A DNA stretch of 57,057 nt, taken from assembly GCA_026396065.1 (NCBI GenBank), contig JAPLXO010000010.1:1-57057 (forward strand), written 5' to 3'. This document shows, piece after piece, positions 928 to 57,052 of the stretch. Under the pieces are notes generated by a model. It was given only the letters and a program-made list of their open reading frames with translations. It was not told the DNA's origin and did no database searches. The first letter of the stretch is position 1; each line of letters opens with the position of its first letter. The position numbers and the translations under genes were made by a program. Origin of the DNA: Candidatus Nomurabacteria bacterium. GTDB lineage: Bacteria; Patescibacteriota; Minisyncoccia; Phycocordibacterales; UBA9973.

Positions 928-1431
928 ATGAAAAATGAAAAAGTAATTATCTATACAGATGGAGCTGCGAGGGGGAATCCGGGTCCTGCGGGGTGGGGGG
1001 CTATCGTAATTCACCCCCTCCCAACCTCCCCCTTAGCGAAGGGGGAGGAGAAATTCAAAATTCATGAGCTTGGTGGAAGGTCAGATAATGCGACCAATAA
1101 TCAAATGGAGCTTTCTGCGCCGATTGGAGGGTTGAAGTATTTAAAGAAAATAAAATACGATGGACATGTGGAGATTTTTTCCGATTCTAAATATGTGATT
1201 CTAGGAATCACTGAGTGGATTTTCAATTGGCAGAAGAATAATTGGCGAAATGCTGCAAAGAAGCCAGTGGCGAATCAAGAACTTTGGGAAGAACTTTTTG
1301 AACTTACAAAACTTTTTAAAATCAAATGGACGTATGTGAAAGGTCATGCAGGTATCGAATACAACGAGCGTGCAGACGTGATAGCTACGAGTTTTGCTGA
1401 CGACGAACCTATTAAATTAATACAGCACTAA
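928..1431 (+). CDS. rnhA: ribonuclease HI
   Basis: IYTDGAARGNPGPAGWGAIV, TNNQMEL and NERADVIA motifs. The ATG at 928 is preferred over the TTG at 907 because TATAAT 915-920 lies 7 nt upstream. Confidence 0.85.
   Translation: MKNEKVIIYTDGAARGNPGPAGWGAIVIHPLPTSPLAKGEEKFKIHELGGRSDNATNNQMELSAPIGGLKYLKKIKYDGHVEIFSDSKYVILGITEWIFNWQKNNWRNAAKKPVANQELWEELFELTKLFKIKWTYVKGHAGIEYNERADVIATSFADDEPIKLIQH
1012..1050 (+). repeat. C-rich hairpin element, copy A (in frame inside rnhA)
   Basis: CACCCCCTCCCAACCTCCCCCTTAGCGAAGGGGGAGGAG. Arms 1025-1034 and 1039-1048 form a perfect 10-bp pair. It encodes HPLPTSPLAKGEE and matches the copy at 51790-51828 at 35 of 39 nt. Confidence 0.8.
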
Positions 1432-8476: not shown

Positions 8477-10624
8477 ATGGAAAGAGATTATCCACTAGAG
8501 AAGGTTAGAAATATCGGAATTATCGCGCACATCGATGCGGGTAAGACTACGACTACAGAACGTGTGCTTTTTTATACTGGCGTATCACACAAAATCGGTG
8601 AAGTGCACGAAGGTGAGACTACTACAGACTGGATGGAACAAGAGCGTGAGAGAGGCATCACTATCACTTCTGCGGCTGTCACTTGTTTCTGGACACCGAC
8701 ATATGCAGGTACAGACAAATCAAAGAAACATCGTTTCAATATTATCGACACACCTGGGCACATCGACTTCACAGTGGAAGTGAAAAGATCTCTTCGCGTA
8801 TTAGACGGTGCTGTCGTAGTGTTCGACGGCGTGGCTGGAGTGGAACCTCAATCAGAAACAAACTGGCGTTATGCTGACGAAGCAAATGTCCCTCGTATTT
8901 GTTTTGTGAACAAGCTCGACAGAACAGGTGCATCATTTGAACATTCATATGCAACTATTTTAGACCGTCTTACAAAAAAGGCTGTTCGTATGCAAATACC
9001 TATTGGCCTTGAAGAAAAACATGAAGGTGTTGTCGATCTTTTAAAAATGAAAGCATATTACTTTGAAGGTGATATGGGTAATAAGGTTATTGAAAAAGAT
9101 ATTCCAGAAGACATGAAAGCTGATGCTGAAAAATATCACGGTGAACTTATCGAAAAAATAGTTGAACAAGATGATGCTCTAATGACAGAATATTTGGAAG
9201 GGAAAATCCCAACTATGGAAGTTTTAAAAAAGACTCTTCGTAAAGCTGTTATTGATAATGCGATTTTCCCAGTATACGCTGGATCAGCACTCAAGAACAA
9301 AGGAGTTCAGCTCGTACTCGACGGCGTCGTAGATTATCTTCCATCACCACTCGATATTCCACCTATACCTGGAATCAATGTTGATACTGAAGAACCAATG
9401 GTCAGAGAGGCTTCTGATAGTCAACCTTTCGCAGCTCTTGCTTTCAAAGTGGCTACAGATCCATTCGTAGGACAAATTATTTTCTTCCGTGTTTATTCCG
9501 GAACATTGACTGCTGGAAGTTATGTTTACAACCCTCGTACAAGAAACAAAGAAAGAATCGGACGTATTTTGCGTATGCATGCGAACGATCGTGAAGAAGT
9601 TAAGCAAGTTTTTGCTGGAGAAATCGCAGCTGCTGTTGGCTTGAAAGATACTATTACTTCCGATACTCTTTGTGATGAAAACAATCCTATTATTTTGGAC
9701 CGTATCGTTTTCCCTGAACCAGTTATCTCTCTACGTATTGAACCAAAGACAAAAGCTGACCAAGAAAAAATGGGTATGGCACTCAACCGTCTTGCTCAAG
9801 AAGATCCTACTTTTAAAGTTTCAACTGATCAAGAAACAGGAGAGACAATTATAGCCGGAATGGGAGAACTTCATCTTGAAATTATTGTCGATCGTATGAA
9901 ACGTGAATTTACTGTCGAAGCAAATGTCGGTAAACCTCAAGTAGCTTATCGTGAGACTATTACTGGTTCTGCAGAAGTTGAAGGTAAATATATTAAGCAA
10001 TCTGGTGGTCGTGGAAACTATGGTCACGTGAAGATCAAAGTAAAACCAATGGTACCGATGACGAAAGAAGAAGTTGCTGATTTACCAAAAAATACAAAAC
10101 GTGTAGATGGTTTTGAATTTATTAATACAATCAAAGGAGGTGCTATTCCACAAGAATACATCGCTCCTTGTGAAAAAGGATTTAAAGAAGGTCTCGATCG
10201 TGGTATTCTCGCTGGTTTCAAACTAGTGAATGTATCTGTAGATCTTTGGGATGGATCTTTCCACGAAGTGGACTCAAACGAAATGGCTTTCAAAATCGCA
10301 GCTAGTATGGCTGTGCAAGACGCTTGTCGTCAAGCTCGCCCAGTGATTTTAGAACCTATGATGAAAGTAGAAGTAGTGACTCCAGATAAATTCATGGGAG
10401 ACGTCACAGGAAATCTTTCTTCAAAACGTGGACTTATCGAAGGTATGGAAGACCGTGGTATGAACAAAGTCGTGAAAGCAATCGTTCCGCTTTCTGAAAT
10501 GTTCGGATACATGACTGGTCTACGCTCAATGACAGAAGGACGTGCTTCATTCACTATGGAATTCTTGAGATACGATATAGTACCTCAGAATGTTGCGGAT
10601 ACTATTATTGCAGCTAGAAAGTAA
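8477..10624 (+). CDS. fusA: elongation factor G
   Basis: [18 protein letters not shown] and NKLD G-motifs. 715 aa, full length. Confidence 0.97.
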
Positions 10625-10633
10625 TACAAAGAA

Positions 10634-10676
10634 CCTCACCCCTGACCCCTCTCCTTATAAAGGAGAGGGGTTTTGG
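10634..10676 (+). repeat. C-rich hairpin element, copy D, acting as the fusA terminator
   Basis: CCTCACCCCTGA then CCCCTCTCCTT (10646-10656) paired with AAGGAGAGGGG (10660-10670), a perfect 11-bp stem, followed by TTTT. Confidence 0.8.
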
Positions 10677-18319: not shown

Positions 18320-18625
18320 ATGCTTTTTGTTTACACAACGTGTTCAACTTCAGATGAAGCAGAATCATTAAGTAAACTTATTTTAGAAAATAAAATGGCT
18401 GCTTGCGTAGATTATTGGCCAATAAAGTCTATCTATCATTGGGAAGGAAAATTGAAAGAAGAAAGTGAAATTATGATGATAATTACCACTTTTGAATCAA
18501 AACTTGAAGCAATGAATGATTTGATTTCTAAAAACCACAGCTACTCTGTTCCACTTATTGCTGGTATAGACGTTAGAAGGATAAATCGTGCATATAGAGA
18601 GTGGATGATGCAGGAAGTTGCTTAG
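18320..18625 (+). CDS. cutA: CutA1 divalent-cation tolerance family protein
   Basis: AACVDYWPIKSIYHWEGK...ESEIMMIITT...HSYSVP pattern. 101 aa. Confidence 0.8.
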   Translation: MLFVYTTCSTSDEAESLSKLILENKMAACVDYWPIKSIYHWEGKLKEESEIMMIITTFESKLEAMNDLISKNHSYSVPLIAGIDVRRINRAYREWMMQEVA

Positions 18626-18692
18626 TAATTTTAATATAAAATATATCCCGCATTTATTACGGGAAGTGTTAATTTTTTTAAATATTCAACAA

Positions 18693-20393
18693 ATGGAAAC
18701 AAAAGCTTGCCAAAATTGTAAACGAGACTTCAATATAGAACAAGCAGATTTTAACTTTTATCAAATGATGAAAGTGCCGACGCCGACTTGGTGTCCTGAT
18801 TGCAGAATGGTCCGTCGGCTTTCTTTTAGAAATGAACGCAATTTATTTCGTAGAAAAGATGCGCTCACGAGTGATGATTTATTTTCTGGTTTTCCAGCTG
18901 AGGCTAATGTCAAAACTTATGAAAATAATTACTGGCATGGAGATAAATGGGATCCATTAGATTATGGAGTAGATTATGATTTTTCAAAACCATTTTTTCA
19001 GCAATTTTATGACTTATTGTCTGTTGTGCCTCTACCAGCAAAATCGTCTGCCGGTTTTATGATCAATTCAGACTATTGCAACGAAGCAGGAAGACTTCGC
19101 AATGCGTATTTGTGTTTCGATTCTGACTTTGTTGAAAATTCTGCTTATTTAGTTAAGGCGACAAATATAAAAGAATGTTTTGATTCTCACGAAATCTTAG
19201 AAGACGAATTGTGTTATGAGGATGTAATGGTATACAAATCTTATAAAACTTTCTACTCTTTAGATTGTGAAAGTTGCGTGGACGTTTGGTTTAGTAAAGG
19301 ACTTCGTGGATGCACGAATTGTTTTGGTTGTGTAAATTTGAGAGGGAAGTCTCATTATTTTTTCAACGAACCACTTTCCAAAGAAGAATATGAAAAAAGA
19401 ATTTCCGAATTAGATCTCAGTTCTTATGAATCAATTACAAAAATACGAAATGCAGTTTTAGAATTTTGGCAAAAATTTCCAGTAAAATATTATCACGGAA
19501 TACGAAATCACAATTGCACTGGTGAGAGAATAAGTGACTGTAAAAATGTCCTTGATTCTGTTTCAGTGCAAGATGCTGAAAATATGCGCTATATTCAGAT
19601 CAGTGTCCTAAAAGCAGCCAATTCATATGATTGCGTTCAGCTTTTTATGGGAGTTGAAAATGCTTATGAATGCGTTACTTGCGGAGAAGGCTCTTATAAT
19701 TTGAAATATTGTTTCAATTGTTGGGCAGAATCACGAGATTTAGAATATTGTGCCTACTGTATAGGCTCCTCCGATTGTTTTGGTTGTGTTGGTCTTTCAA
19801 AAAAACAATATTGTGTTTTAAATAAACAGTACACAAAAGAAGAATATTTTTCACTTGTAGAAAAAATAAAAAAACATATAGACGAAATGCTATACATTGA
19901 TTCATTGGGAAGGGAATATAAATATGGAGAATTTTTTCCATCTGAATTTTCTCCGCTTGCATACAATGAAAGTTTTGCTCAAGATTATATTCCTTTAAAT
20001 AAAGAACAGGCCAAAGAAAAAGGTTTTTTGTGGCGCGAACCAAATGCACGCGAATTTCAAACAACAATGCAACACACAGATTTACCAGATTCAATTCGTG
20101 ATGTTTCAGAAGATATTACAAAAGAAGTTATTGCTTGCGAGACATGCAAACGCGCATATAGAATAATATCTTCAGAATTACAATTTTATAAACGCATAGG
20201 TTTGCCGTTGCCACACAAATGTCATAACTGTAGATTTTTAGATCGTTTTAAATTTATAAATCCTCCAAAACTTTGGCACCGCAAGTGTATGAATACAAAA
20301 ATTTCTTGCCCAAACGAATTTGAAACATCATACGCGCCCGAAAGCACTGAGATTGTTTACTGTGAAAGTTGCTATCAAAAAGAAGTATATTAA
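18693..20393 (+). CDS. Cys-rich multi-zinc-ribbon protein, paralog 1 (566 aa)
   Basis: Starts METKACQNCKRDF..FY..KVPTPTWCPDCR. Contains CFGCVNL, CFGCVGL and YKYGEFFP, with a C-terminal CETCKRAYRI..ELQFYKRIGLPLPHKCHNCR and IVYCESCY. The ATG at 18693 lies inside track ORF 18618. Confidence 0.85.
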   Translation: METKACQNCKRDFNIEQADFNFYQMMKVPTPTWCPDCRMVRRLSFRNERNLFRRKDALTSDDLFSGFPAEANVKTYENNYWHGDKWDPLDYGVDYDFSKPFFQQFYDLLSVVPLPAKSSAGFMINSDYCNEAGRLRNAYLCFDSDFVENSAYLVKATNIKECFDSHEILEDELCYEDVMVYKSYKTFYSLDCESCVDVWFSKGLRGCTNCFGCVNLRGKSHYFFNEPLSKEEYEKRISELDLSSYESITKIRNAVLEFWQKFPVKYYHGIRNHNCTGERISDCKNVLDSVSVQDAENMRYIQISVLKAANSYDCVQLFMGVENAYECVTCGEGSYNLKYCFNCWAESRDLEYCAYCIGSSDCFGCVGLSKKQYCVLNKQYTKEEYFSLVEKIKKHIDEMLYIDSLGREYKYGEFFPSEFSPLAYNESFAQDYIPLNKEQAKEKGFLWREPNAREFQTTMQHTDLPDSIRDVSEDITKEVIACETCKRAYRIISSELQFYKRIGLPLPHKCHNCRFLDRFKFINPPKLWHRKCMNTKISCPNEFETSYAPESTEIVYCESCYQKEVY

Positions 20394-20747: not shown

Positions 20748-22445
20748 ATGGAACATCAATCAGAAAGTAAAATATGTTTTAATTGTAAAGGTAGCTTTAC
20801 CATCGCACCAGAAGATTTTGGTTTTTATGAAAAGATTGGAGTGCCTACGCCGACTTTATGTTGGCAGTGTAGATATCAACGTAGAATTGCTGGAAGGAAT
20901 GAATGGGTTTTATATTTACGACATTGTTCAAAATGCGACAAAAAAGCAGTTTCAATTTATAATCCAGATTATTTAGGTAGTGTATTTTGCCTTGAATGTT
21001 TTTGGGGTGATGATTGGGATCGGACTGCTGCTGGTGTGGATTTTGATTTTTCTCGTCCATTTTTTGAGCAGTTTGCGGAATTACGAGAGCGGGCACCAAA
21101 ACCTGCAGTTGCGCAGTTTCGTTGCCTAAACAGTCCTTATACAAATCAATCTCAAGATCTAAAGAATTGCTATATGTGTTTTGCTTGCGATGCGAGCGAA
21201 GATTGTATGTATGGTAATTGGTATTTTAGCTGTAAGCAGTCTATTGATTGTAGTATTGTAAATAAGTCTGAATTGCTTTATGAATGCTTGGTCAGTTCTA
21301 CTTGTTTTAAATCTACATATTTAGTTGATTGCAAGAGTTGTATAGACAGTCATTTTTTAAAAAAGTGTCGTGATTGTCAAAATTGTTTTGGTTGTGTGAA
21401 TTTACGAAATAAAAGTTATTGTTGGGAAAATGTACAATTAACAAAAGAAGAATATTTTAAAAAGCTTAGTGAATTTGAGTGGTCAGTGGAAAATATTGAA
21501 AAGACAAGAAGACATCTTAATGAATTGTTTTTGAAATATCCAAACAAAAATTATGAAGGGCGAGACATTGTAAATGCGACAGGGGATTATATTTACCATT
21601 TAAAGAATTGCCAAGTTTGTTTTAGTACGCATAAATCCGAAGATGTCAGCTATTCTCAAGATGCATCTGATATGAAAGGTGGTCGTGACAATACCGAAGC
21701 TGCATACAATGAAATGGATTATGAATCAGAGGGTATAGGATATACCGCAAACAATATTTCAATTTCACGATGTTGGAATATGTATAATTCTATGTATTCT
21801 ATGAATTGTTTTAGTTGTGATAATTGCTTTGGTTGTGTAGGGCTTAATAAACAAAAATATTGCATTTTCAATAAACAATACACACCAGAAGAATATTTAG
21901 TTTTAAAAAATAAAATTATTGAGCATATGAAAAAGACTGGTGAATGGGGAAACTTTTTTCCTATTGAGATATCTTTATTTGCATACAATGAAACAGTTGC
22001 TCAAGAATATTTCCCAATGAATAAAGAAGAGATACTGGCGAAAAGGTGGAAATGGTATGACAGAGGTGACAGAGATTATAAGGTGACTGTGAAATCAAAT
22101 GAACTTCCTAAAACAATCATCGAAACACCAGATTCTATTTTGGAAGAAGTTATTAGCTGTAATTCCCATGAAACTGGAGCAGATAAAACTAGCTACTTTA
22201 ATTGCACTACTGCCTTTCGTGTATCTGCAGATGAATTGAGTTTTTATCGAAGAATGAATTTACCAATTCCACACAAGTGTTTCATGTGTCGTTTTCAAGA
22301 TAGATTACGTCTACGAAATCCTAGAAATCTCTGGCACAGAAAGTGTATGAAAGAGGGATGTGAGAACGAGTTCGAAACATCATATTCACCAGAGAATCCG
22401 GAAATTGTCTATTGTGAGAAATGTTATCAAAATGAGGTATACTAA
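20748..22445 (+). CDS. Cys-rich multi-zinc-ribbon protein, paralog 2 (565 aa)
   Basis: CFNCKGSFTI..EDFGFYEKIGVPTPTLCWQCR, HCSKCD..VFCLECFWGDDWD, CFGCVNL, CFGCVGL, and C-terminal ELSFYRRMNLPIPHKCFMCR with IVYCEKCY. Confidence 0.85.
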   Translation: MEHQSESKICFNCKGSFTIAPEDFGFYEKIGVPTPTLCWQCRYQRRIAGRNEWVLYLRHCSKCDKKAVSIYNPDYLGSVFCLECFWGDDWDRTAAGVDFDFSRPFFEQFAELRERAPKPAVAQFRCLNSPYTNQSQDLKNCYMCFACDASEDCMYGNWYFSCKQSIDCSIVNKSELLYECLVSSTCFKSTYLVDCKSCIDSHFLKKCRDCQNCFGCVNLRNKSYCWENVQLTKEEYFKKLSEFEWSVENIEKTRRHLNELFLKYPNKNYEGRDIVNATGDYIYHLKNCQVCFSTHKSEDVSYSQDASDMKGGRDNTEAAYNEMDYESEGIGYTANNISISRCWNMYNSMYSMNCFSCDNCFGCVGLNKQKYCIFNKQYTPEEYLVLKNKIIEHMKKTGEWGNFFPIEISLFAYNETVAQEYFPMNKEEILAKRWKWYDRGDRDYKVTVKSNELPKTIIETPDSILEEVISCNSHETGADKTSYFNCTTAFRVSADELSFYRRMNLPIPHKCFMCRFQDRLRLRNPRNLWHRKCMKEGCENEFETSYSPENPEIVYCEKCYQNEVY

Positions 22446-22449
22446 TAAT

Positions 22450-24228
22450 ATGGAAACAAAAACATGTCAAAATTGTAAAAGTGATTTCGTGATAGACCAA
22501 GAAGATTTTAATTTCTACGAAAAAATGCAGGTGCCAGCGCCGACTTTTTGTCCTATGTGTCGTGCACAAAGACGATTTGCTTTTAGAAATGAACGTGTTT
22601 TATTTAAAAGAAAATGCGATTTTTCCGGTAAAGAAATTTTTTCAATGTATGCTCCTGATGCGCCAGTAAAAGTATATGAAAAAAATATTTGGCTTTCAGA
22701 TGAATGGGACCCAATGACATATGGAGTCGATATTGATTTTTCAAAACCATTTCTTTCTCAAATTAAAGATTTGATGGGTGTAGTTCCTTTTAAAGATAGA
22801 AATGTCATAAACGGAGTGAATAGTGATTATTCTAATAATGCTACTGATCCAAAAAATTGTTATTTAGTTTTTAATGCTACAAATGCTGAAGATTGCATGT
22901 ATTCAAATGGAGTAAACCACTCTCGTGACTGTGTGGACGTTTCTCATGTTTCAAAAGTCGAATCTTGCTATGAAAGTTTTTGGTTGGCTGATTGCACTAA
23001 AACTTTTTTTTGTTCTCAATGTATTACTTCAAACGAATTGTGGTTTTCTAGAGATTGTCGCGGATGTCAAAATTGTTTCGGTTGTGTGAATTTGAGTAAT
23101 AAAAGTTATTATATTTTTAATCAGTCTTATACTCGTGAAGAATATTTTGCGAAATTAGCAGAGATGAAATTAGATACTCGAAGTGGAATTGAAGAAGCTA
23201 AAAAAGTAGCTTTTGATTTTTGGCAAAAATTTCCAAATAAAAATCACCAAGGAATAAAAAATTTAAATTGTACTGGGTCATATGTAGGGAATTGTAAAAA
23301 TGTAAAAGAATCATTCTTAATTCGCGAATCTGAAAATATAAAATATAGTCAATATTTACAGGAAATTCCAGGTTGCAAAGATTGCTATGATTTTACTGCT
23401 TGGGGCGATAACGCCCAAATGGTTTATGAATGTTCTTTGTGTGGTTCTGGTGTGGATAATCTTAAATTTGGCTTGTATTTACAGGAGCATACTAACGATG
23501 TCGAGTATTCTATTGCTTGCCAAGGGTCATCTAATCTTTTTGGTTGTGTCAGTCTTCGTAAAAAACAATATTGTATTTTAAATAAACAATATACAAAAGA
23601 GGAATACTTTGCTCTCGTCGAGAAAATAAAAAAACATATGATGGATATGCCTTTTATAGATTCAAAAGGTTTGGTTTATAAATATGGTGAATTTTTTCCA
23701 ATAGAATTTTCAAATTTTGCTTATAATGAAACAATTGCAAATGAGTATTTTCCTTTAACTAAAGAAGAAGCTGTTGCAAAGGGTTATACTTGGAGAGATC
23801 CAGAAGATAAAAATTATACTGTGACAATGCAACCAAACGATTTACCTGATTCGATTAATGATGCTACAGATGCTATTACAAAAGAAGTGATTGGTTGTAG
23901 TCACAATGGAGATTGTAATCATCGTTGCACCAAGGCATTTCGGATAACTCAGAATGAATTAAATTTTTATAAAAAAAATAAATTACCACTTCCACAGGTT
24001 TGTCCTTCCTGTAGAACTTTTGAAAGATTAAAATTCCGTCTTGGATTAAAACTTTACGAAAGAAAATGCCAATGCATAGGTACAGCCTTAGAAAATGGTG
24101 AATATATAAATGCAGTAAAACATTTCCATGGAGATGATCCTTGTATAAATGAATTTAAAACAGGTTTTGATCCTGTAAAGTCTGACATAATTTATTGCGA
24201 AAAATGCTACCAAGAAGAGGTTGATTAA
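22450..24228 (+). CDS. Cys-rich multi-zinc-ribbon protein, paralog 3 (592 aa)
   Basis: METKTCQNCKSDF..FYEKMQVPAPTFCPMCR with the same module order. It starts 4 nt after the paralog 2 stop. Confidence 0.85.
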   Translation: METKTCQNCKSDFVIDQEDFNFYEKMQVPAPTFCPMCRAQRRFAFRNERVLFKRKCDFSGKEIFSMYAPDAPVKVYEKNIWLSDEWDPMTYGVDIDFSKPFLSQIKDLMGVVPFKDRNVINGVNSDYSNNATDPKNCYLVFNATNAEDCMYSNGVNHSRDCVDVSHVSKVESCYESFWLADCTKTFFCSQCITSNELWFSRDCRGCQNCFGCVNLSNKSYYIFNQSYTREEYFAKLAEMKLDTRSGIEEAKKVAFDFWQKFPNKNHQGIKNLNCTGSYVGNCKNVKESFLIRESENIKYSQYLQEIPGCKDCYDFTAWGDNAQMVYECSLCGSGVDNLKFGLYLQEHTNDVEYSIACQGSSNLFGCVSLRKKQYCILNKQYTKEEYFALVEKIKKHMMDMPFIDSKGLVYKYGEFFPIEFSNFAYNETIANEYFPLTKEEAVAKGYTWRDPEDKNYTVTMQPNDLPDSINDATDAITKEVIGCSHNGDCNHRCTKAFRITQNELNFYKKNKLPLPQVCPSCRTFERLKFRLGLKLYERKCQCIGTALENGEYINAVKHFHGDDPCINEFKTGFDPVKSDIIYCEKCYQEEVD

Positions 24229-28256: not shown

Positions 28257-29918
28257 ATGACAAAAAAGACAGGCGCTGGCCTTACTACAGACAAAAAGTT
28301 TACTCTTGCTGATTTGCAAAAGCTTTCAGAAGAGACACAGATACCACTTACTGTTTTGCAAAAAGAATATGGAGTTTATGAATTTCATTTTTCTTCTTGC
28401 ACAGAAGCAGTAAAAGAGTATAAGTCAGGTTACAGAAGTTGCCCATTCCCCAGCATAGAGGATGGCATTTATGACAAACCTGAAGTAATAGCTTTTCACA
28501 AAGCGTGGAAAGAAATTTCACTTACAGAACAAACCAATGTAACTAAATTGAGTTTTGAAGAATCATTAATGTTTATTCAAGTATGTTATCCACACGGGGA
28601 ACAACTTGTTTCCTTGATAAAAAACTTGAGAAAACATATTGGTAAAGACATACCTAAAATTGTTCGATTTATTAAGGAAGGACAAACTTTTACTTTTTAC
28701 AAAAGTGATGAATGCCCTGTTAAAGCTCTTAAAGAGTACTTAATGAAAAAAGTTGAAGTTCACTACGACAAAAAGATTAGTAAAGCAAAAAGTTTAGAAC
28801 AACTGCTTTTCATTGAGCAGGAAATTTATGACTACAAGTTTACCGAGGTTAGACCATTTCCTATTTTTTTTGAGATTTTATGGCAAAGAAAAGCTAGAAC
28901 TGCAAAAAAGATAGATGACTTAAGCCTTGTTGGAAACTGTTGTGGGCACGAAGTGCTTAGATGGAGGGAACTTTATCCTAAAGCCACAATAGCCGAAGCC
29001 TTACCAACTTTGAGAGAATTTCTTTTGAAGATCTGGCAGGCACACAAACCCGATGATGTTTATTCAATAATCAGACACTTTTTTTCAAAGTGTGAAAACG
29101 ACCGTCAGGCGAGATCATTACTTGATATGGGAAGAGGTTTCTTTCCTCCACAAGAGAATTATGACCGCAGTTGTGAACTGTACGAAATGGCCAATGAAAG
29201 GATTTACCGGAAACAGTTTCCAAACCCAAGACTGAAAGATATGAGGATTATTTCCAATAGTATTTATTCTGACTCGTACAAAAAGGAAATTGAGAAGCTT
29301 TGGATTAAAAAAACAGAAAAAGCTTTAACACAGCCGATTCATAATTTCGGAGTGTTGTACGAGATGGCTCATAAATCTTTACAGGAGAAAGTATTACGTG
29401 TTTGGAATGAATGGGGATTGAAACAAATTGAAGGGATAGAAACTTGGGAAGAATTGTCACAATTCAACTATAGTCTACTTCCATCTCCACAAGTGAGACG
29501 TGGTAGAGGTTATTACATTTGGGCAGGGAATCGCGATTCATTTTCGGCCTTTATCGTATTTCTCAATAAGATTATACCCACAGTGGATATTCTTGGAAAT
29601 AAAACCAGGGTTTTAGATTCTATTCTTAAGTTCAATGATGTGCTCACCGAGTGCCATATGTGGGATTTGTTGCAAGATGAACTTCAACAGATTCTTTTGA
29701 GGATTTTTGAAGAAAATCAGTCAGTTGAAGAACTATGGGCTTTGCACGAGAAAGTTTCAATTAGTCCGGCATATTCGTGGAAAAAAAGTGATGAGATGAT
29801 TATAGATGAAATCCTTAAAAAAGACCCTTCAGCTATAAATAAAGTTTTCACTAAAGTAAAACAGGGTGACCCATTGTTTAGTAAGTATTTAAAAATTAAA
29901 GTTGCGCAGATTACTTAA
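28257..29918 (+). CDS. orphan 553-aa protein inserted between rplE and rpsN
   Basis: Long uninterrupted ORF with its own promoter, leader and terminator. No recognisable motif. Confidence 0.6.
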   Translation: MTKKTGAGLTTDKKFTLADLQKLSEETQIPLTVLQKEYGVYEFHFSSCTEAVKEYKSGYRSCPFPSIEDGIYDKPEVIAFHKAWKEISLTEQTNVTKLSFEESLMFIQVCYPHGEQLVSLIKNLRKHIGKDIPKIVRFIKEGQTFTFYKSDECPVKALKEYLMKKVEVHYDKKISKAKSLEQLLFIEQEIYDYKFTEVRPFPIFFEILWQRKARTAKKIDDLSLVGNCCGHEVLRWRELYPKATIAEALPTLREFLLKIWQAHKPDDVYSIIRHFFSKCENDRQARSLLDMGRGFFPPQENYDRSCELYEMANERIYRKQFPNPRLKDMRIISNSIYSDSYKKEIEKLWIKKTEKALTQPIHNFGVLYEMAHKSLQEKVLRVWNEWGLKQIEGIETWEELSQFNYSLLPSPQVRRGRGYYIWAGNRDSFSAFIVFLNKIIPTVDILGNKTRVLDSILKFNDVLTECHMWDLLQDELQQILLRIFEENQSVEELWALHEKVSISPAYSWKKSDEMIIDEILKKDPSAINKVFTKVKQGDPLFSKYLKIKVAQIT

Positions 29919-35711: not shown

Positions 35712-35744
35712 AAAAGTCCCCGTGATCAAAAACGGGGATTTTTT
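35712..35744. terminator. bidirectional terminator
   Basis: TCCCCGT (35717-35723) pairs with ACGGGGA (35732-35738), with A-runs and T-runs on both sides. It sits between convergent genes. Confidence 0.8.
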
Positions 35745-36372
35745 AGTTTTCTATAATTTTCTTATATCCTTCTATAGCTTTTAAAATATCTTTTGTTACA
35801 TTAGGTACAGTTTGTTTGCCGTTTATTATTTTTAGTTTTTTTAGACTTTGAAAATATTTCACAGTTTTACCGACTTGGTTTGTGTGCCAAGCAATTCTTC
35901 GAGCTATAACGTCTTCTTTATCATCAAGGTTTCGTTTGTCTTTTGTTTGTTTAATTTTTAGACTTGTAGTTGCAATTGTTCTATTTAATGAACGTTTATA
36001 AACTTCTTTTTCAGGCAGTGTCACATAAAGAGCAAAAAAGTTTTGTTTTTTTTCTTCGAATAATTTCTTTAGAAGTTGGGCCTCTGGTTTAAGCCGTGGG
36101 TTACCAACAAAGAGCAAATCTTTATTTTTAGGTTTTTTGGCAATCTCTTGAACAAGAAATTTTTTCATTAATGCTACTGGGGCTGGGTGACCCTTGCCCA
36201 TTGTTCTACGAATCCAGTCTCCATCTGCACTTTTTTCTTTCATTATTTCTCTCCAATGTTTACCAGATTCTACTGGCTTGAGAGCATATTTTTTCATTAG
36301 AAATTTTGCTTGTGTATCTTTACCAGAAGCAATCATTCCTAATAGAACTATATTAAAATTCAATTTTTTCAT
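35743..36372 (-). CDS. adenylate-kinase-family nucleoside monophosphate kinase (divergent second copy)
   Basis: P-loop-like LLGMIASGKDTQAKFL with overall adk-like length and layout. Confidence 0.55.
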   Translation of the reverse strand: MKKLNFNIVLLGMIASGKDTQAKFLMKKYALKPVESGKHWREIMKEKSADGDWIRRTMGKGHPAPVALMKKFLVQEIAKKPKNKDLLFVGNPRLKPEAQLLKKLFEEKKQNFFALYVTLPEKEVYKRSLNRTIATTSLKIKQTKDKRNLDDKEDVIARRIAWHTNQVGKTVKYFQSLKKLKIINGKQTVPNVTKDILKAIEGYKKIIEN

Positions 36373-36435
36373 GTGCAGTCATTCTATTATAAAAATCTTG
36401 ATTATTCAAGTTTTTTCCTGTATTCTATAGTTATT

Positions 36436-37023
36436 ATGCAAACACAAACTTTCGTATTTTTTGGAATAGTAGGTTCTGGAAAGGGAACACAGGTTAAGCT
36501 ATTAATGGATGTTTTAAAAGCCAAAGACGGCAAAGATTGTGTTTATATTTCTCCTGGTAATGAATATAGAAAAATAATTACATCCGATACCCAAACTGCT
36601 AGCCTTGTAAAAGTTACACTAGATAAAGGTGGCCTTCTGCCAGATTTTTTGACTAATGCAGTTTTTTTAAATATTGTCATTCCATCAATTTCTATTGATA
36701 AGCATTTAATCGCTGATGGTTTTCCTCGTAGTTTAGACCAATCAAATTGTTTTGAAGAAACAATGAATTTTTATGACAGAAAAAATATTAAAGTTATTTA
36801 TATTGAACTTAGTAAAGAAGAAGCGATAAAAAGGATGAAAATTCGGGCAAGACATGATGATACAGATGAAGGGATTGCAAAAAGATTTGATGAATATGAA
36901 AAGAATGTTATTCCAGCTATGAATTATTTTAAAAACAAAGAAGGCTATACAATTTTTAATATAAACGGAGAACAAACTATTGAAAATGTACAAAAAGATA
37001 TTAATAAAGCTTTAGGATTATAA
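36436..37023 (+). CDS. adk: adenylate kinase
   Basis: FGIVGSGKGTQ, ADGFPRSLDQ and RARHDDTDEGIAKRFDEY. The ATG at 36436 lies inside track ORF 36373. Confidence 0.85.
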   Translation: MQTQTFVFFGIVGSGKGTQVKLLMDVLKAKDGKDCVYISPGNEYRKIITSDTQTASLVKVTLDKGGLLPDFLTNAVFLNIVIPSISIDKHLIADGFPRSLDQSNCFEETMNFYDRKNIKVIYIELSKEEAIKRMKIRARHDDTDEGIAKRFDEYEKNVIPAMNYFKNKEGYTIFNINGEQTIENVQKDINKALGL

Positions 37024-37024
37024 A

Positions 37025-37711
37025 ATGGAAACAGAAGAGAAAATAATTATTTCATTAGGTGGTTCACTCATAATTCCAGAGGAAATTGATGTAGATTTTT
37101 TGAAAGATTTTAAAAAATTAATTCTTTCTCAAGTAGAACAAGGTAAAAAATTTGTAATTATCACTGGTGGTGGAAAGATTTGTCGCAAATATCAAAATGT
37201 AGCAAAAGAACTTTCTACTCCTTCAAATGAAGATCTTGATTGGATAGGAATAGCCTCACTTAAGTTGAATGCTGAGCTTTTGCGTGTTGTTTTTGGTGAA
37301 TATGCCCACGAAAGGGTGATAGCAGATCTTTCAAAAGATGTACCAATGGATAAATCTATAATAATAGGTTCTGCTTGTGAACCAGGGCAAAGTACAGATT
37401 GGGATGCAGTGCTAGCGGCGAAATCTATAGGTGCTAAAAAAGTGATTAATCTTTCAAATACTGATTATGTTTACGACTGCGACCCACGTACAAATCCAAA
37501 TGCAAAAAAGTTTGAAAAAATTTCTTGGGCAGAATATAGAGAAATTATTCCAAAAGAGTGGAATCCAGGTCTTTCTTCTCCGTTTGACCCTATTGCTTCA
37601 AAAGAAGCACAGAAAGAGGGTATGCAAGTAATGATAATCAACGGTAAACCAATTGATAATTTTGCAAAATGTTTGAATGGTGAAAGTTTCGCAGGAACGG
37701 TCATTAGTTAA
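37025..37711 (+). CDS. amino-acid-kinase-family protein resembling short archaeal-type UMP kinase
   Basis: ISLGGSLI...KFVIITGGGKICRKY...; 228 aa. Confidence 0.65.
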   Translation: METEEKIIISLGGSLIIPEEIDVDFLKDFKKLILSQVEQGKKFVIITGGGKICRKYQNVAKELSTPSNEDLDWIGIASLKLNAELLRVVFGEYAHERVIADLSKDVPMDKSIIIGSACEPGQSTDWDAVLAAKSIGAKKVINLSNTDYVYDCDPRTNPNAKKFEKISWAEYREIIPKEWNPGLSSPFDPIASKEAQKEGMQVMIINGKPIDNFAKCLNGESFAGTVIS

Positions 37712-37715
37712 ATCT

Positions 37716-39416
37716 ATGGAAACAAAAAGTTGTCAAAACTGTAAAAAAGATTTTGTTATCGAACAAGATGATTTTTTATTTTACGAAAAAATAAAAGTTC
37801 CACCACCGACATTTTGTCCTGAGTGTAGATTACAGAGACGTCTTGTATGGATGAAAGGACTTGATTTATTTAAAAGGAAATGTGATTTATGTGGAGAAGT
37901 GAAAATTTCTATGTATCATCCAGATGCTCCGTATGTGGTTTATTGCACTAAATGTTGGTGGGGTGATGGTTGGGACCCCGCAGACTATTCTATGGAATAT
38001 GATTCAAACAGAACGTTCTTTGAACAATGGAACGAGCTTTATCATAAAACTCCTGTATTTGGTCTTTCAACTGACAAAATTACCACCGAACTATCTCCGT
38101 ACACTAATCATGTAGGTAATTCAAAACATTCTTATTTAATTTTTTATTCGTATCTTGTTGAAGATTCAGCTTATGGTTTTGAAATTACCAATTCAAAAAA
38201 TATATATAATTGTGGAACAATTTTAAATTCAGAGAACTGTTTTGATTCTTCTAATGTTTATAAATCCTATAATATAGTTAGCTCTAGTGGAAATACTCGC
38301 TCATGTTATGATTGTTTTTTTATTCGAGATTGCGAGGGATGTCACCACTGTTTTGGTTTATCAAATGGCAAAAATCAATCTTACGTATTTCTAGGAGAAC
38401 AACTAACAAAAGAAAAATATGAGGAGAGTGTCAATAATATTGATATGGGTTCCTATTCTCAATACTTACAATGGAAAGAAAAAGTAATAAATTATTTTAA
38501 AACTATCTCACCAAAACCAGTATGGGAAACGCTTTCACAAAATATAAGTGGCAGCTATATTTTTAATTCGAAGAACTGTCATAACTGTTTTGATGTTACT
38601 GACTGCGAAGATTCAAAGTTTCTTATGTTGATAAAAATAGGTAAAGTGAAAGATTCTTATGATTATACTGATTGGGGAGAAAATGTAGAGTTATTATATG
38701 AATGTATGACTGTTGGAGATCAAGCACAAAATGTTAAGTTTAGTCATGATTGTGGACATGGTATTTCAAATATTGAGTACTCAAAACTTTCCACTGGTAG
38801 TTCTTACAATTTTGGATGTATTTCAATTAAAAAGTCAGATTATTGTATTTTAAATAAAAAATATTCGAAAGAAGAATATTTTGAGTTACGTAAAAAAATT
38901 ATTAAAGATATGGATATTAATCCATATCGTAGTATAGAAGGACATACTTATAAATATGGAGAATTTTTACCACCAGAATTTTCACCACATTCATATAATG
39001 ATTCTTTTGCCTCAAGAGTTTTTCCTTTGACTATAGATACAGTTATTTCAAAGGGATTGAAATGGTATGGTGGCGAAAAAAAAGAATATAGAGTAACTAT
39101 CCAAACTGTTGATATTCCAGACAATACAGCTGAAGTAGATGAGACTATTTTAAATGAGGTATTACAATGTGGTACCTGTGTACGGGGTTTTAAGATTATT
39201 TCACAAGAATTACAATTTCTACAACAACACCATTTACCATTGCCACGGCAATGTCCGTTTTGTCGTGTGTGGGAGAAGGTTGATAAATGTGTAGATAATA
39301 TGAAGCAAGTTGAAAGAAATTGTGATAAATGCGGAATTAATTTCATCACTCATTATTCTAAAGAAGAAGCACTAAAAATATTTTGCAAAGAATGTTATAA
39401 AAAAGAATTTTTATAA
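37716..39416 (+). CDS. Cys-rich multi-zinc-ribbon protein, paralog 4 (566 aa)
   Basis: METKSCQNCKKDF..FYEKIKVPPPTFCPECR, KCDLCGE..VVYCTKCWWGDGWD, YKYGEFLPPEFSP, and C-terminal ELQFLQQHHLPLPRQCPFCR with IFCKECY. Confidence 0.85.
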   Translation: METKSCQNCKKDFVIEQDDFLFYEKIKVPPPTFCPECRLQRRLVWMKGLDLFKRKCDLCGEVKISMYHPDAPYVVYCTKCWWGDGWDPADYSMEYDSNRTFFEQWNELYHKTPVFGLSTDKITTELSPYTNHVGNSKHSYLIFYSYLVEDSAYGFEITNSKNIYNCGTILNSENCFDSSNVYKSYNIVSSSGNTRSCYDCFFIRDCEGCHHCFGLSNGKNQSYVFLGEQLTKEKYEESVNNIDMGSYSQYLQWKEKVINYFKTISPKPVWETLSQNISGSYIFNSKNCHNCFDVTDCEDSKFLMLIKIGKVKDSYDYTDWGENVELLYECMTVGDQAQNVKFSHDCGHGISNIEYSKLSTGSSYNFGCISIKKSDYCILNKKYSKEEYFELRKKIIKDMDINPYRSIEGHTYKYGEFLPPEFSPHSYNDSFASRVFPLTIDTVISKGLKWYGGEKKEYRVTIQTVDIPDNTAEVDETILNEVLQCGTCVRGFKIISQELQFLQQHHLPLPRQCPFCRVWEKVDKCVDNMKQVERNCDKCGINFITHYSKEEALKIFCKECYKKEFL

Positions 39417-50511: not shown

Positions 50512-51933
50512 TTATTGTTGGTCCAAAGTCAACCGGACTTGCTCTAATAGAGATTGTATTCTTTTTTCGTCTTTTGCTTCTCCGATCATACGCACTATTG
50601 GCTCTGTATTTGAGGGTCTTAAATGTACCCAAGAGTTGTCGGCAAAGTCAAAGCGTATGCCATCTAATGTGTCTATTTTTCCATCAGGAAATTTTTGTTT
50701 TAGTTTTTCGTAAACAATAGGCAAGTCGTGCTTTAGTCCTATTTTGTCTTTTTGTGTAAAATATTTTGGTAGTTCATTTACAATTTCTGAAATTTTTTTA
50801 TTTTCTGTTGCCATCAGTTCGAGAGTGAGGGCCATACCTACCAAGCTGTCGCGAGCAGGATTTATTCTTGGATATATTATTCCTCCACTACCTTCACCAC
50901 CGACAAGGGCATTTACTTCGAGCATTTTGTTCACAACATTTGGCTCACCGACTTTTGTGCGATATAGTTTTGTTTTGTATTCTGTTGCCAAGTCTTCACA
51001 TATTTTTGTCGTCGACATATTTACGACGACGTCTTTTATTGGCACTGATAAACGACTTTCTTTCATGAGAGCGCTTTTCACTCCAACTACAACTGTATAT
51101 TCTTCAAAAATTATTTCTCCTTTTTCATTTACCATCACCAAGCGATCGGCATCAGGATCTTGAGCGAAACCAATGTCAGCATTATTATCTTTCACTGCTT
51201 GTGCAATTTGTTCTAGATTTTGCACTGTCGGTTCGGGCATATGTGTAAATTCACCAGTTTGTTCTTTATTAATTTGAAAAACTTCACATCCCAAGCTTTC
51301 TAATAATTCTAATGTAATAATACTACCAGCACTATTTATAGGATCATGGGCGACTTTAAATTTTTTACTTTTTATTTTTTCAACATCAATATTTTTTAAA
51401 ATTTCATCAATATGTATTTTACGAAACTTTTGGTTGTCTATTTCTGACCCCATAGGATTATCCTGTGTGGTAAACCTCACCCCAACCTTCTCCTCTGAGG
51501 AGAGGGAGTCCTTATTTTTTATTATTTCTTCAATTTGGCTAGGCGTTAAAAAAAGGCCTTTGTCATTCATGAATTTTATCCCATTGTATTCTGGGGGATT
51601 GTGTGAAGCTGTGATCATTATGCCACCACTAAAACCAAGTTTTCTGATCAACAAAAGCATTGAAGGCGTCGGTATTATGCCTGCATATTCAAATTGTACC
51701 CCTTCTTTTTCACAGGCTTGTTTGAAAGCTGAAAACATCAAAGGCCCTGTCTTTCTTGCATCCCGGCCTATTAAAATTTTATGTTTCTGCTCCTCCCCAT
51801 TTGCCAAGGGGGAGGCTGGGAGGGGGTGCTTTTTTATAAGTTTTGCAAAAGCCAAACCAAATTCGTAAGCAATTTGCTCATTTAAATCTTTACCCCATAT
51901 TCCTCTATACCCCGAGACATTTAATTTTGCCAT
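50512..51933 (-). CDS. phosphoglucomutase/phosphomannomutase-family mutase
   Basis: ITASHNPPEYNGIKF active-site loop and FAQDPDADR metal loop. 473 aa, carrying two repeat-derived inserts. Confidence 0.88.
   Translation of the reverse strand: MAKLNVSGYRGIWGKDLNEQIAYEFGLAFAKLIKKHPLPASPLANGEEQKHKILIGRDARKTGPLMFSAFKQACEKEGVQFEYAGIIPTPSMLLLIRKLGFSGGIMITASHNPPEYNGIKFMNDKGLFLTPSQIEEIIKNKDSLSSEEKVGVRFTTQDNPMGSEIDNQKFRKIHIDEILKNIDVEKIKSKKFKVAHDPINSAGSIITLELLESLGCEVFQINKEQTGEFTHMPEPTVQNLEQIAQAVKDNNADIGFAQDPDADRLVMVNEKGEIIFEEYTVVVGVKSALMKESRLSVPIKDVVVNMSTTKICEDLATEYKTKLYRTKVGEPNVVNKMLEVNALVGGEGSGGIIYPRINPARDSLVGMALTLELMATENKKISEIVNELPKYFTQKDKIGLKHDLPIVYEKLKQKFPDGKIDTLDGIRFDFADNSWVHLRPSNTEPIVRMIGEAKDEKRIQSLLEQVRLTLDQQ
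51475..51506 (+). repeat. C-rich hairpin element, copy C (inside the mutase CDS, antisense to the gene)
   Basis: CCTCACCCCAACCTTCTCCTCTGAGGAGAGGG aligns with copy D. It is read on the minus strand as SLSSEEKVGVR. Confidence 0.7.
51790..51828 (-). repeat. C-rich hairpin element, copy B (in frame inside the mutase CDS)
   Basis: The reverse complement CACCCCCTCCCAGCCTCCCCCTTGGCAAATGGGGAGGAG encodes HPLPASPLANGEE, in the same frame and orientation as copy A. Confidence 0.8.
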
Positions 51934-56916: not shown

Positions 56917-56987
56917 TGCCCGCCCCGCTAAAAAATCCAAAAGGAAGCCCGCGCGGATTCCTCCCCAGACCCCTCCTCCGCGCGGGC
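56917..56987. repeat. GC-rich structured element G3
   Basis: TGCCCGCCCCGC (56917-56928). A perfect 11-bp hairpin, GCCCGCGCGGA (56947-56957) with TCCGCGCGGGC (56977-56987). The loop CCTCCCCAGACCCCTCC resembles the 5' half of the C-rich element. Confidence 0.6.
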
Positions 56988-57052
56988 GAAATCCAAAATC
57001 CCCGCCGAATTTCAAAAATAGTAGTCTCGGTTTTGCGAAAATCCAAATCCCC
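56986..57052 (+). repeat. imperfect 18-nt direct repeat at the window edge
   Basis: GCGAAATCCAAAATCCCC (56986-57003) and GCGAAAATCCAAATCCCC (57035-57052). A third AAATCCAAAA lies at 56933-56942. Confidence 0.5.

Follow-up and report, generated by a model that had tools for sequence, protein, structure and literature searches.

A translated intrastrand-triplex repeat of the BoxC/PIT/TM type in RNase HI of a Candidatus Nomurabacteria bacterium, and the DUF559 nuclease as its possible partner

How does a short C-rich hairpin come to be translated as part of RNase HI, when the closest relatives of the protein do without it? The question is raised by contig JAPLXO010000010.1 of a Candidatus Nomurabacteria bacterium (assembly GCA_026396065.1), positions 1 to 57,057 of which are called the window here. 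Its rnhA gene holds a 39-nt element, copy 1, at 1012..1050 on the plus strand. We believe copy 1 is probably one copy of a short, non-coding, dispersed intrastrand-triplex repeat of the type known as BoxC, PIT or TM, which would have been added to new sites and would survive in frame where a protein loop tolerates it. Among the ways in which it may have spread we prefer copying by a nuclease of the DUF559 family.

The C-rich strand of the element, CACCCCCTCCCAACCTCCCCCTTAGCGAAGGGGGAGGAG, is the sense strand of rnhA (928..1431, plus strand; RNase HI, 167 aa; Pfam RNase_H, E 2e-37). It scores 53.3 bits (E 1e-11) against a covariance model built from 18 equal-length copies, and it is translated as HPLPTSPLAKGEE. 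The initial annotation described a C-rich 39-nt element with a perfect 10-bp stem lying in frame in rnhA, and both sequence and fold agree: CCTCCCCCTT pairs with AAGGGGGAGG around the loop AGCG at -20 kcal/mol (z -2.7). The hairpin occupies 1025..1048 of the plus strand, an assignment that rests on this fold and on compensatory changes in the family. Its 5' arm CCTCCCCCT(T) is at 1025-1034, its loop at 1035-1038 and its purine 3' arm (A)AGGGGGAGG at 1039-1048. Ahead of the hairpin on the same strand stand a C-rich tail, ACCCCCTCC, at 1013..1021 and a second loop of 3 nt, CAA, at 1022-1024. Neither the 39-mer nor the CCTCCCC..GGGGAGG hairpin appeared in any of 100 dinucleotide shuffles of the window, which is 34% GC.

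The arrangement is easier to understand on the G-rich minus strand, where the motif proper spans 1013-1048 and reads CCTCCCCCT-TCGCTA-AGGGGGAGG-TTG-GGAGGGGGT. The general order is a 9-nt pyrimidine stem, a loop of 4-6 nt, a 9-nt purine stem, a 3-nt loop (TTG or CTG) and a 9-nt third strand. The 5' tail mirrors the stem, and its complement, GGAGGGGGT, could lie as a reverse-Hoogsteen third strand antiparallel on the purine stem through G.G-C, A.A-T and T.A-T triplets. A generic finder set to this geometry (9 / 3-8 / 9 / 3 / 9 nt, with at least 8/9 pairs and at least 8/9 triplets) returns four motifs in the window, copy 1 and three others discussed below, and none in shuffled 10-kb controls. Copy 1 has 9/9 Watson-Crick pairs. 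The triplet rule, which allows one mismatch, holds for all of them, copies 1 to 4 scoring 9/9, 9/9, 8/9 and 9/9, and copy 1 has the 9-nt stems, 9-nt third strand and two loops of the class II geometry on one strand. Judged from its sequence, the rnhA element is a class II purine-motif intrastrand triplex motif. The hairpin of the initial annotation stands, but the element is not only a hairpin, since its C-rich tail corresponds to a triplex third strand.

The family as a whole argues for the same structure. The 215 covariance-model hits that we aligned fall into stem subfamilies with compensatory changes; 99.3% of the cells in the hairpin are paired, four pairs have changed on both sides, and none of 500 shuffles scores as high. 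The tail tracks the stem in parallel register, with T or A in the tail where the purine arm has A and C where it has G. Across 116 unique elements the third strand fits at 8.60/9 in the predicted register as against at most 5.6 in shifted or antiparallel ones, and 79 of them fit at 9/9, which none does in a shifted register. There are at least seven stem classes, each with its matching tail, and when the tails are swapped among nine stem classes the observed score is reached in only 24 of 362,880 permutations. Lineage-specific stems that covary in all three strands are comparative evidence for selection on the triplex fold itself. We also considered a G-quadruplex or i-motif reading of the G/C runs and dropped it, because mirror covariation of tail and stem is predicted by a triplex and not by a quadruplex.

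Repeats of this kind are not new. The BoxC and PIT literature is said to include work by Bachellier in the 1990s and by Hoyne & Maher in 2000 and 2002. The BoxC/PIT/TM repeats have been on record for thirty years, and to our knowledge no function, partner protein or way of spreading has been assigned to them. Class II purine-motif intrastrand triplex repeats have been described as a 9-nt C stem, a 3-6 nt loop, a 9-nt G stem, a 3-nt loop and another 9-nt G stem, called first BoxC and later PIT elements and found in Proteobacteria and cyanobacteria (Holder et al. NAR 2015, PMC4666352). E. coli TMECO oligonucleotides form a triplex in vitro by circular dichroism and nuclear magnetic resonance (NMR), and NMR excluded a quadruplex; in E. 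coli K-12 the TMECO motifs are "always located intergenically", no function was found for them, and Salmonella is reported to be without TMECO (PMC4666352).

The elements studied here have the G-rich-strand architecture and triplet code of BoxC/PIT/TMECO, and like them are multi-copy, highly conserved, often arranged in inverted pairs and more variable in their loops than in their stems. One E. coli copy has the same layout and aligns to our covariance model, and copies 3 and 4 of the window come near the TMECO consensus. That consensus in the strict sense (5'-CCCTCNCCC N3-6 GGGNGAGGG N3 GGGNGAGGG) is matched by no window copy: copies 1 and 2 have the stems CCTCCCCCT/AGGGGGAGG, and copies 3 and 4 (CCCTCTCCT.., CCCCTCTCC..) are close but offset or degenerate. 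The main window variant thus has CCTCCCCCT/AGGGGGAGG/GGAGGGGGT in place of CCCTCNCCC. The host also differs, Patescibacteria lying outside the 2015 survey, and an association with DUF559 is unreported there (PMC4666352). Location differs as well, since three of the four window copies are genic and translated and one is intergenic, whereas TMECO in E. coli is reported to be always intergenic. We regard this as a behavioural and not a structural difference; multi-copy status and inverted pairs are seen in other genomes.

No Rfam family was found for the element, either in a permissive search of the region or in a gathering-threshold search of the whole window. Literature searches with the sequence strings gave unrelated matches only, and those on palindromes or in-frame repeats in the candidate phyla radiation (CPR) or Parcubacteria gave nothing relevant. 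As far as our search reached, there is no later literature on coding copies or on the triplex motif in Patescibacteria. The initial annotation had known of no description for this kind of genome. This holds, in the literature searched, for the in-frame copies and for the occurrence in Patescibacteria, but the repeat family itself is the known BoxC/PIT/TMECO (PMC4666352). Four points are new: the host belongs to Patescibacteria, copies routinely reside in frame within essential genes, one RNase HI loop is used again and again, and the motifs are associated with DUF559.

If the element is a repeat, it should be possible to say whether it entered rnhA or was always there. Copy 1 supplies residues 29-41 of RNase HI, at the tip of the beta2-beta3 hairpin. 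An AlphaFold2 model has strands at 19-30 and 43-55 and coil at 31-42, with a pLDDT (the model's confidence measure) of about 63 in the insert coil against about 90 in the rest of the protein, and alignments to solved RNase HI structures in the PDB leave a gap of 9-12 residues exactly at this site. The model and the alignments place the insert in a predicted surface loop, the location that the initial annotation had proposed to check, and they agree with its remark that E. coli-type RNase HI is shorter here. The homologues of RNase HI and of GlmM, the protein that holds copy 2, come from Patescibacteria (Nomurabacteria, Paceibacterota, Minisyncoccia), and the RecJ-rnhA-ComEC-SOD gene order is conserved in relatives. 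The 12-13 residues are missing from the nearest RNase HI proteins (86, 81 and 77% identity), which are 12 residues shorter there and whose DNA aligns cleanly on either side of the gap. The insert made by copy 2 is found in none of 119 GlmM homologues. Since the insert of copy 1 is missing from the closest RNase HI relatives and that of copy 2 from all 119 GlmM homologues, we conclude from the sequences that both insertions are derived.

The opposing view would be that of a native, vertically inherited Paceibacteria RNase HI loop which happens to be GC-rich, with the glmM copy a coincidence, or else of an assembly artefact. The initial annotation named orthologues with the same peptide across unrelated lineages as a sign of a native loop, and formally such orthologues do exist: of 121 homologues, about 30 have a related peptide, (Y)P(Y/H)P(T/A)SPLxRGRSKEGV, at this site, which makes roughly a quarter of the Paceibacteria orthologues. 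The native loop itself is not borne out. In a neighbour-joining tree of RNase HI with the insert masked, carriers and non-carriers are mixed down to sister pairs and the window protein falls among insert-free sequences, although the protein is short and the deep nodes are weak. Between the window and locus L001 the DNA of the insert agrees at 34/36 positions while the rest of the gene is 65% identical, and copies in unrelated genes or other genomes reach 35-36/39. Within the peptide, variation falls on the residue for which the hairpin loop codes. Three copies of one metagenome-assembled genome (MAG), one of them the rnhA insert of L002 and the other two lying between genes in L042, have a genome-specific variant in common. 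The mixed tree, the identity of the insert DNA and the genome-specific variants lead us to exclude a native loop despite the shared peptide. The same repeat is intergenic elsewhere, and its recurrence in many independent assemblies argues against an artefact. We give this alternative next to no credence.

The same beta2-beta3 loop of RNase HI in other Paceibacteria also holds inserts of two other types (P0018, P0027, P0066 and others; L134:8079-8126, L135:8079-8120). One type, translated as ..NDKLKVESKKLKV.., derives from about five tandem AAGTTAA heptamers and the other, translated as ..NYELRITNYKIT.., from AATTACG heptamers; no further copies of either were seen within 16 kb.

A 35/39-identical copy in an unrelated gene, in the same frame and orientation, had been reported from the start, and the gene proves to be of the PGM/PMM family. 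This is copy 2 (51790..51828, minus strand; 42 bits by the covariance model), in a phosphoglucosamine mutase-like (glmM-like) gene on the same strand (50512..51933; 473 aa; Pfam PGM_PMM_I-IV). Its C-rich strand is the glmM sense strand and encodes HPLPASPLANGEE, residues 36-48 of the protein, in the loop after helix 1. Its G-rich triplex strand is the plus strand at 51792-51827, with 8/9 Watson-Crick pairs (one stem mismatch) and 9/9 triplets. Two GlmM homologues, P0128 and P0215, have a different short insert, ..LPAQAG.., in the copy 2 loop, which may be another GC-rich palindrome-type repeat.

The search for further copies proposed by the initial annotation, by covariance model and by pattern, was productive: the covariance model led to copy 3 in the window, and the pattern to many loci elsewhere. 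Copy 3 (51471..51509, plus strand; 28.7 bits, E 1.6e-5) is degenerate and antisense to glmM, and makes up about residues 142-155 of the same protein, encoding ..SLSSEEKVGVRF... It belongs to a TMECO-like subfamily (CCTTCTCCT / AGGAGAGGG / tail ACCTCACCC; 8/9 pairs, 8/9 triplets). The closest GlmM homologue, P0122, has a counterpart at L132:3143-3181 (29.9 bits, and by protein alignment), so copy 3 is an older insertion. Copy 4 (10634..10670, minus strand), found by the generic finder, is the intergenic one: CCCCTCTCC-TTTATAA-GGAGAGGGG-TCA-GGGGTGAGG, with 9/9 pairs and 9/9 triplets, starting 10 nt past the stop codon of a 715-aa EF-G-like open reading frame (ORF) at 8477-10624.

Beyond the window, a scan of species-representative genomes with the pattern CCCARCCTCCCCCTT-N(2-8)-GGGGAGG found at least 119 loci, a sample and not a census, in Alpha-, Beta-, Gamma- and Deltaproteobacteria, Fibrobacterota, Chloroflexi, Sumerlaeota and several Patescibacteria. 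The matches share a 5' extension, ACCCCCT, and a 3' AG that lie outside the pattern and are the boundaries of the window 39-mer, and many occur as inverted doublets. A metagenome scan with a lineage-specific pattern gave only 6 loci, and viral contigs gave 2, both high-GC. Of the 28 copies in the Patescibacteria loci sampled, 19 fall within open frames of 150 aa or more, in five frame/orientation combinations. Hosts confirmed by Pfam are Tgt, LepA, a UvrD/PD-(D/E)XK helicase-nuclease, MnmA, RsmA, LigA, TsaD and YceG, several of them with two or three copies, and among proteobacterial genes PolA (between its exonuclease domains) and HsdM carry copies. In-frame copies are common in Patescibacteria; genes make up most of the available target, the window being about 88% coding.

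Several arrangements of the repeat recur in these loci. Two or three copies may share one gene, as in RNase HI of L001 (10083-10124 and 10233-10272), LepA of L076 and the helicase of L077; in the set made up of these loci, L092 and L116 there are also long forms in which an extra 3' arm, GGAGGGGGT, pairs with the tail and gives a unit of 51-57 nt. Three related loci have copies inside the neighbouring recJ (L001:9603-9643, L134:7539-7578, L135:3835-3872). Dense local arrays occur in some Proteobacteria (L018, L021, L096, L105 and L107; Rhodocyclaceae MAG).

The following sequence of events would account for the in-gene copies. The structure would be a property of single-stranded DNA, exposed in replication, repair or transfer, and not of the protein. 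Copies would be added at new sites, and in a compact Patescibacteria genome these would mostly be genes. The survivors would be those with a length divisible by three, read in one of the four stop-free frames and placed in a tolerant surface loop, where they would be translated as a Pro/Gly-rich coil (the RNase HI beta2-beta3 tip, the GlmM loop after helix 1). The repeat also matters for annotation, as Pro/Gly-rich inserts of 12-19 residues in CPR proteins may be repeat DNA and not adaptation.

One could argue instead that the in-gene copies are kept for a local function, as a DNA pause or recombination signal, as an internal Shine-Dalgarno-like sequence that slows ribosomes between folding units, or as a useful flexible loop. 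The 3' arm does include the Shine-Dalgarno-like GGAGGAG, and a start codon often follows intergenic copies at a distance of 7-10 nt. Conservation of the nucleotide sequence is also much stronger in the repeat than in its host gene, and many lineages have this one RNase HI loop occupied. It is difficult to reconcile a local function with five frame/orientation combinations in unrelated enzymes, or with close relatives that do well without the inserts. PIT elements acted neither as promoter nor as terminator and did not affect expression (earlier work, as cited by PMC4666352), and purine-motif triplexes cannot form in RNA (PMC4666352). We consider a local function very improbable, and the idea of a Shine-Dalgarno/anti-Shine-Dalgarno hairpin is retained merely as part of this minor rival.

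This leaves the question of what moves a non-coding repeat, and here the neighbouring genes are suggestive. DUF559 genes are present in 11 of 127 loci selected for the element, and for 10 of these genes a motif is no more than about 170 nt away. In a tblastn search, YcjD and a Patescibacteria DUF559 protein matched 13 sampled loci, the matches being nearly always directly flanked by motifs. In two samples chosen by protein alone, taken together, a motif-adjacent DUF559 gene is found in 13 of 16 loci, from Proteobacteria, Cyanobacteria, Deinococcus and Patescibacteria. The four Patescibacteria homologues among them all have perfect motifs no more than 22 nt from the gene or overlapping it. Nine of 12 diverse YcjD homologues from a plasmid collection have a motif within 170 nt; those loci contain 16 motifs in the 10.9 kb near the gene versus 18 in the 112.8 kb further off, with lineage-specific stems. 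All sampled DUF559 proteins are PF04480, and the only solved relative is a structural-genomics entry, 3HRL. The E. coli copy mentioned above overlaps the 3' end of ycjD, a DUF559 gene (L136:1158-1523), and 186 nt downstream there is another. In L127, a related contig, a copy that agrees with copy 1 at 36/39 positions is found 9 nt upstream of the ATG and directly preceding a DUF559 gene. We found no literature linking DUF559 or ycjD to triplex repeats.

Some details of these loci are worth recording in their own right. Among the DUF559 proteins of E. coli (YcjD, ..LSPSPQPSP), L032, L058, L126 and L150, several owe their C-terminal residues to the flanking motif itself. The purine arm of the motif stands just upstream of the start codon in L127, L152 and L149, like a ribosome-binding site. 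A Photobacterium locus has fourteen copies in 1.6 kb (L146:5371-6954) adjoining its DUF559 gene.

There is a precedent for a short repeat that flanks a nuclease-type gene. Repetitive extragenic palindromes (REPs) are GC-rich hairpin repeats of 20-40 nt, dispersed, often in inverted doublets and extragenic by definition. The REP-associated tyrosine transposase (RAYT) is a single-copy HUH/Y1 transposase gene flanked by REPs, and the repeat sequence is lineage-specific. The REP/REPIN system with its RAYT was reportedly described by Nunvar in 2010 and by Bertels & Rainey in 2011. The triplex repeats are alike in being short GC-rich hairpins that form inverted doublets, flank a nuclease-type gene and differ in sequence between lineages. 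They are not REPs: the 5' segment is a C-rich tail and not a GTAG-type tag, there is a third-strand segment, no Y1 gene is found, and the flanked gene is a PD-(D/E)XK DUF559 nuclease (PF04480) instead of an HUH/Y1 transposase. By this analogy we prefer spread by mobilisation in trans, in which a YcjD-like DUF559 nuclease of the PD-(D/E)XK/Vsr fold would be the mobilising enzyme. In its full form the proposal is that DUF559 is the missing partner of the BoxC/PIT/TM repeats, in a RAYT/REPIN-like system that would recognise the folded triplex across Proteobacteria, Cyanobacteria, Deinococcus and Patescibacteria, and whose non-autonomous copies would colonise protein loops in the gene-dense Patescibacteria, repeatedly the same RNase HI hairpin, and so supply new surface peptides at a steady rate. 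We put this forward tentatively, as a serious possibility.

It is important to set out what weighs against this proposal and against the wider reading of copy 1. The 57-kb window has no DUF559 gene, and no transposase was seen among the 30 ORFs scanned in it; a DUF559 gene, if this genome has one, is therefore located elsewhere. The adjacency of DUF559 and motif gives no direction, as the gene may home into motifs or may use the motif as a ribosome-binding site or regulator, and the taxa in which the repeat was found are only those of the sample. Neither window insertion has a visible target-site duplication when compared with empty sites. The boundary between empty and filled sites is not clean, the 3' flank differing from the empty sites and the comparators being only 73-86% identical. 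One RNase HI loop has been used repeatedly by the triplex repeat and by the two unrelated heptamer repeats, and random insertion plus selection is insufficient on its own to account for that. In E. coli no triplex was detected in vivo by dimethyl sulphate footprinting, and no mobility genes were seen near the copies (PMC4666352).

Several of these points would be expected if the repeat spread without an enzyme of its own. The hairpin or triplex would stall replication or repair, copies would arise by template switching, microhomology-mediated repair or gene conversion, and DUF559 would be a bystander or a user of the motif in a 5' untranslated region or terminator. The missing target-site duplication and untidy boundaries fit such a process, as do the absence of mobility genes and the local genomic instability, small deletions and polymerase stops tied to TMECO motifs (PMC4666352). 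The homogeneity of copies within a genome would also fit gene conversion, and 11 nt upstream of the point of insertion in rnhA there is a third-strand-like G-rich run, GGGGTGGGGGG. There is, however, no G-rich microhomology at the glmM site, and motif-adjacent DUF559 in 13 of 16 protein-first loci, each lineage with its own stem sequence, is hard to square with a bystander gene. In our opinion enzyme-free spread is unlikely, though it deserves to be kept in mind. We continue to prefer DUF559-mediated copying, and the cross-phylum adjacency offers a testable candidate for an enzyme that recognises or moves the repeats, with E. coli ycjD as the genetic handle.

Other classes of short repeat resemble the element in part. 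It is not a miniature inverted-repeat transposable element, given the lack of target-site duplication against empty sites and of any parent insertion sequence in the window. In the mitochondria of yeast and fungi, where the genome is compact and AT-rich, GC clusters are short mobile palindromes of high GC content, some of them in frame in coding genes such as var1. That much they have in common with the triplex repeats, but they belong to organelles, show no sequence relation and are not known as triplex motifs.

The closest parallel in behaviour was drawn by the initial annotation, which called the element selfish and like the Rickettsia palindromic elements (RPEs). RPEs are palindromic elements of about 100-150 bp, known from Rickettsia only, that lie in frame in housekeeping genes (Ogata et al. 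2000, 2002, reviewed in PMC10969869). Both are selfish-looking palindromic repeats of reduced genomes. Both lie in frame within housekeeping genes that have nothing to do with one another, and add to the protein a surface segment that does not destroy it. The dispersed, in-frame behaviour was thus rightly recognised, but kinship was not found: the window element is 36-39 nt (up to 57 nt in the long forms), belongs to a cross-phylum family, has a Patescibacteria host and has no sequence relation to RPE families 1-10, and RPEs are without the triplex-type mirror symmetry. A repeat translated inside essential enzymes here is a second, independent case of the RPE phenomenon.

The rest of the window adds a few minor observations. 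A GC-rich inverted repeat at 56942-57007, GCCCGCGCGGA..TCCGCGCGGGC with a C-rich 20-nt loop, lies 3' of a HAD hydrolase gene at the window end, and the generic finder does not place it in the triplex family. The window has no tRNA genes, and four large ORFs (18618-20393, 22360-24228, 28257-29918 and 37677-39416) have no Pfam match. A 924-aa protein at 40747-43521, which weakly matches coupling proteins of type IV secretion (TrwB/TraG/VirD4-type ATPases), is the only mobility-type gene seen in the window. Two adenylate-kinase-like genes stand back to back and divergent, at 35743-36372 on the minus strand and 36373-37023 on the plus strand.

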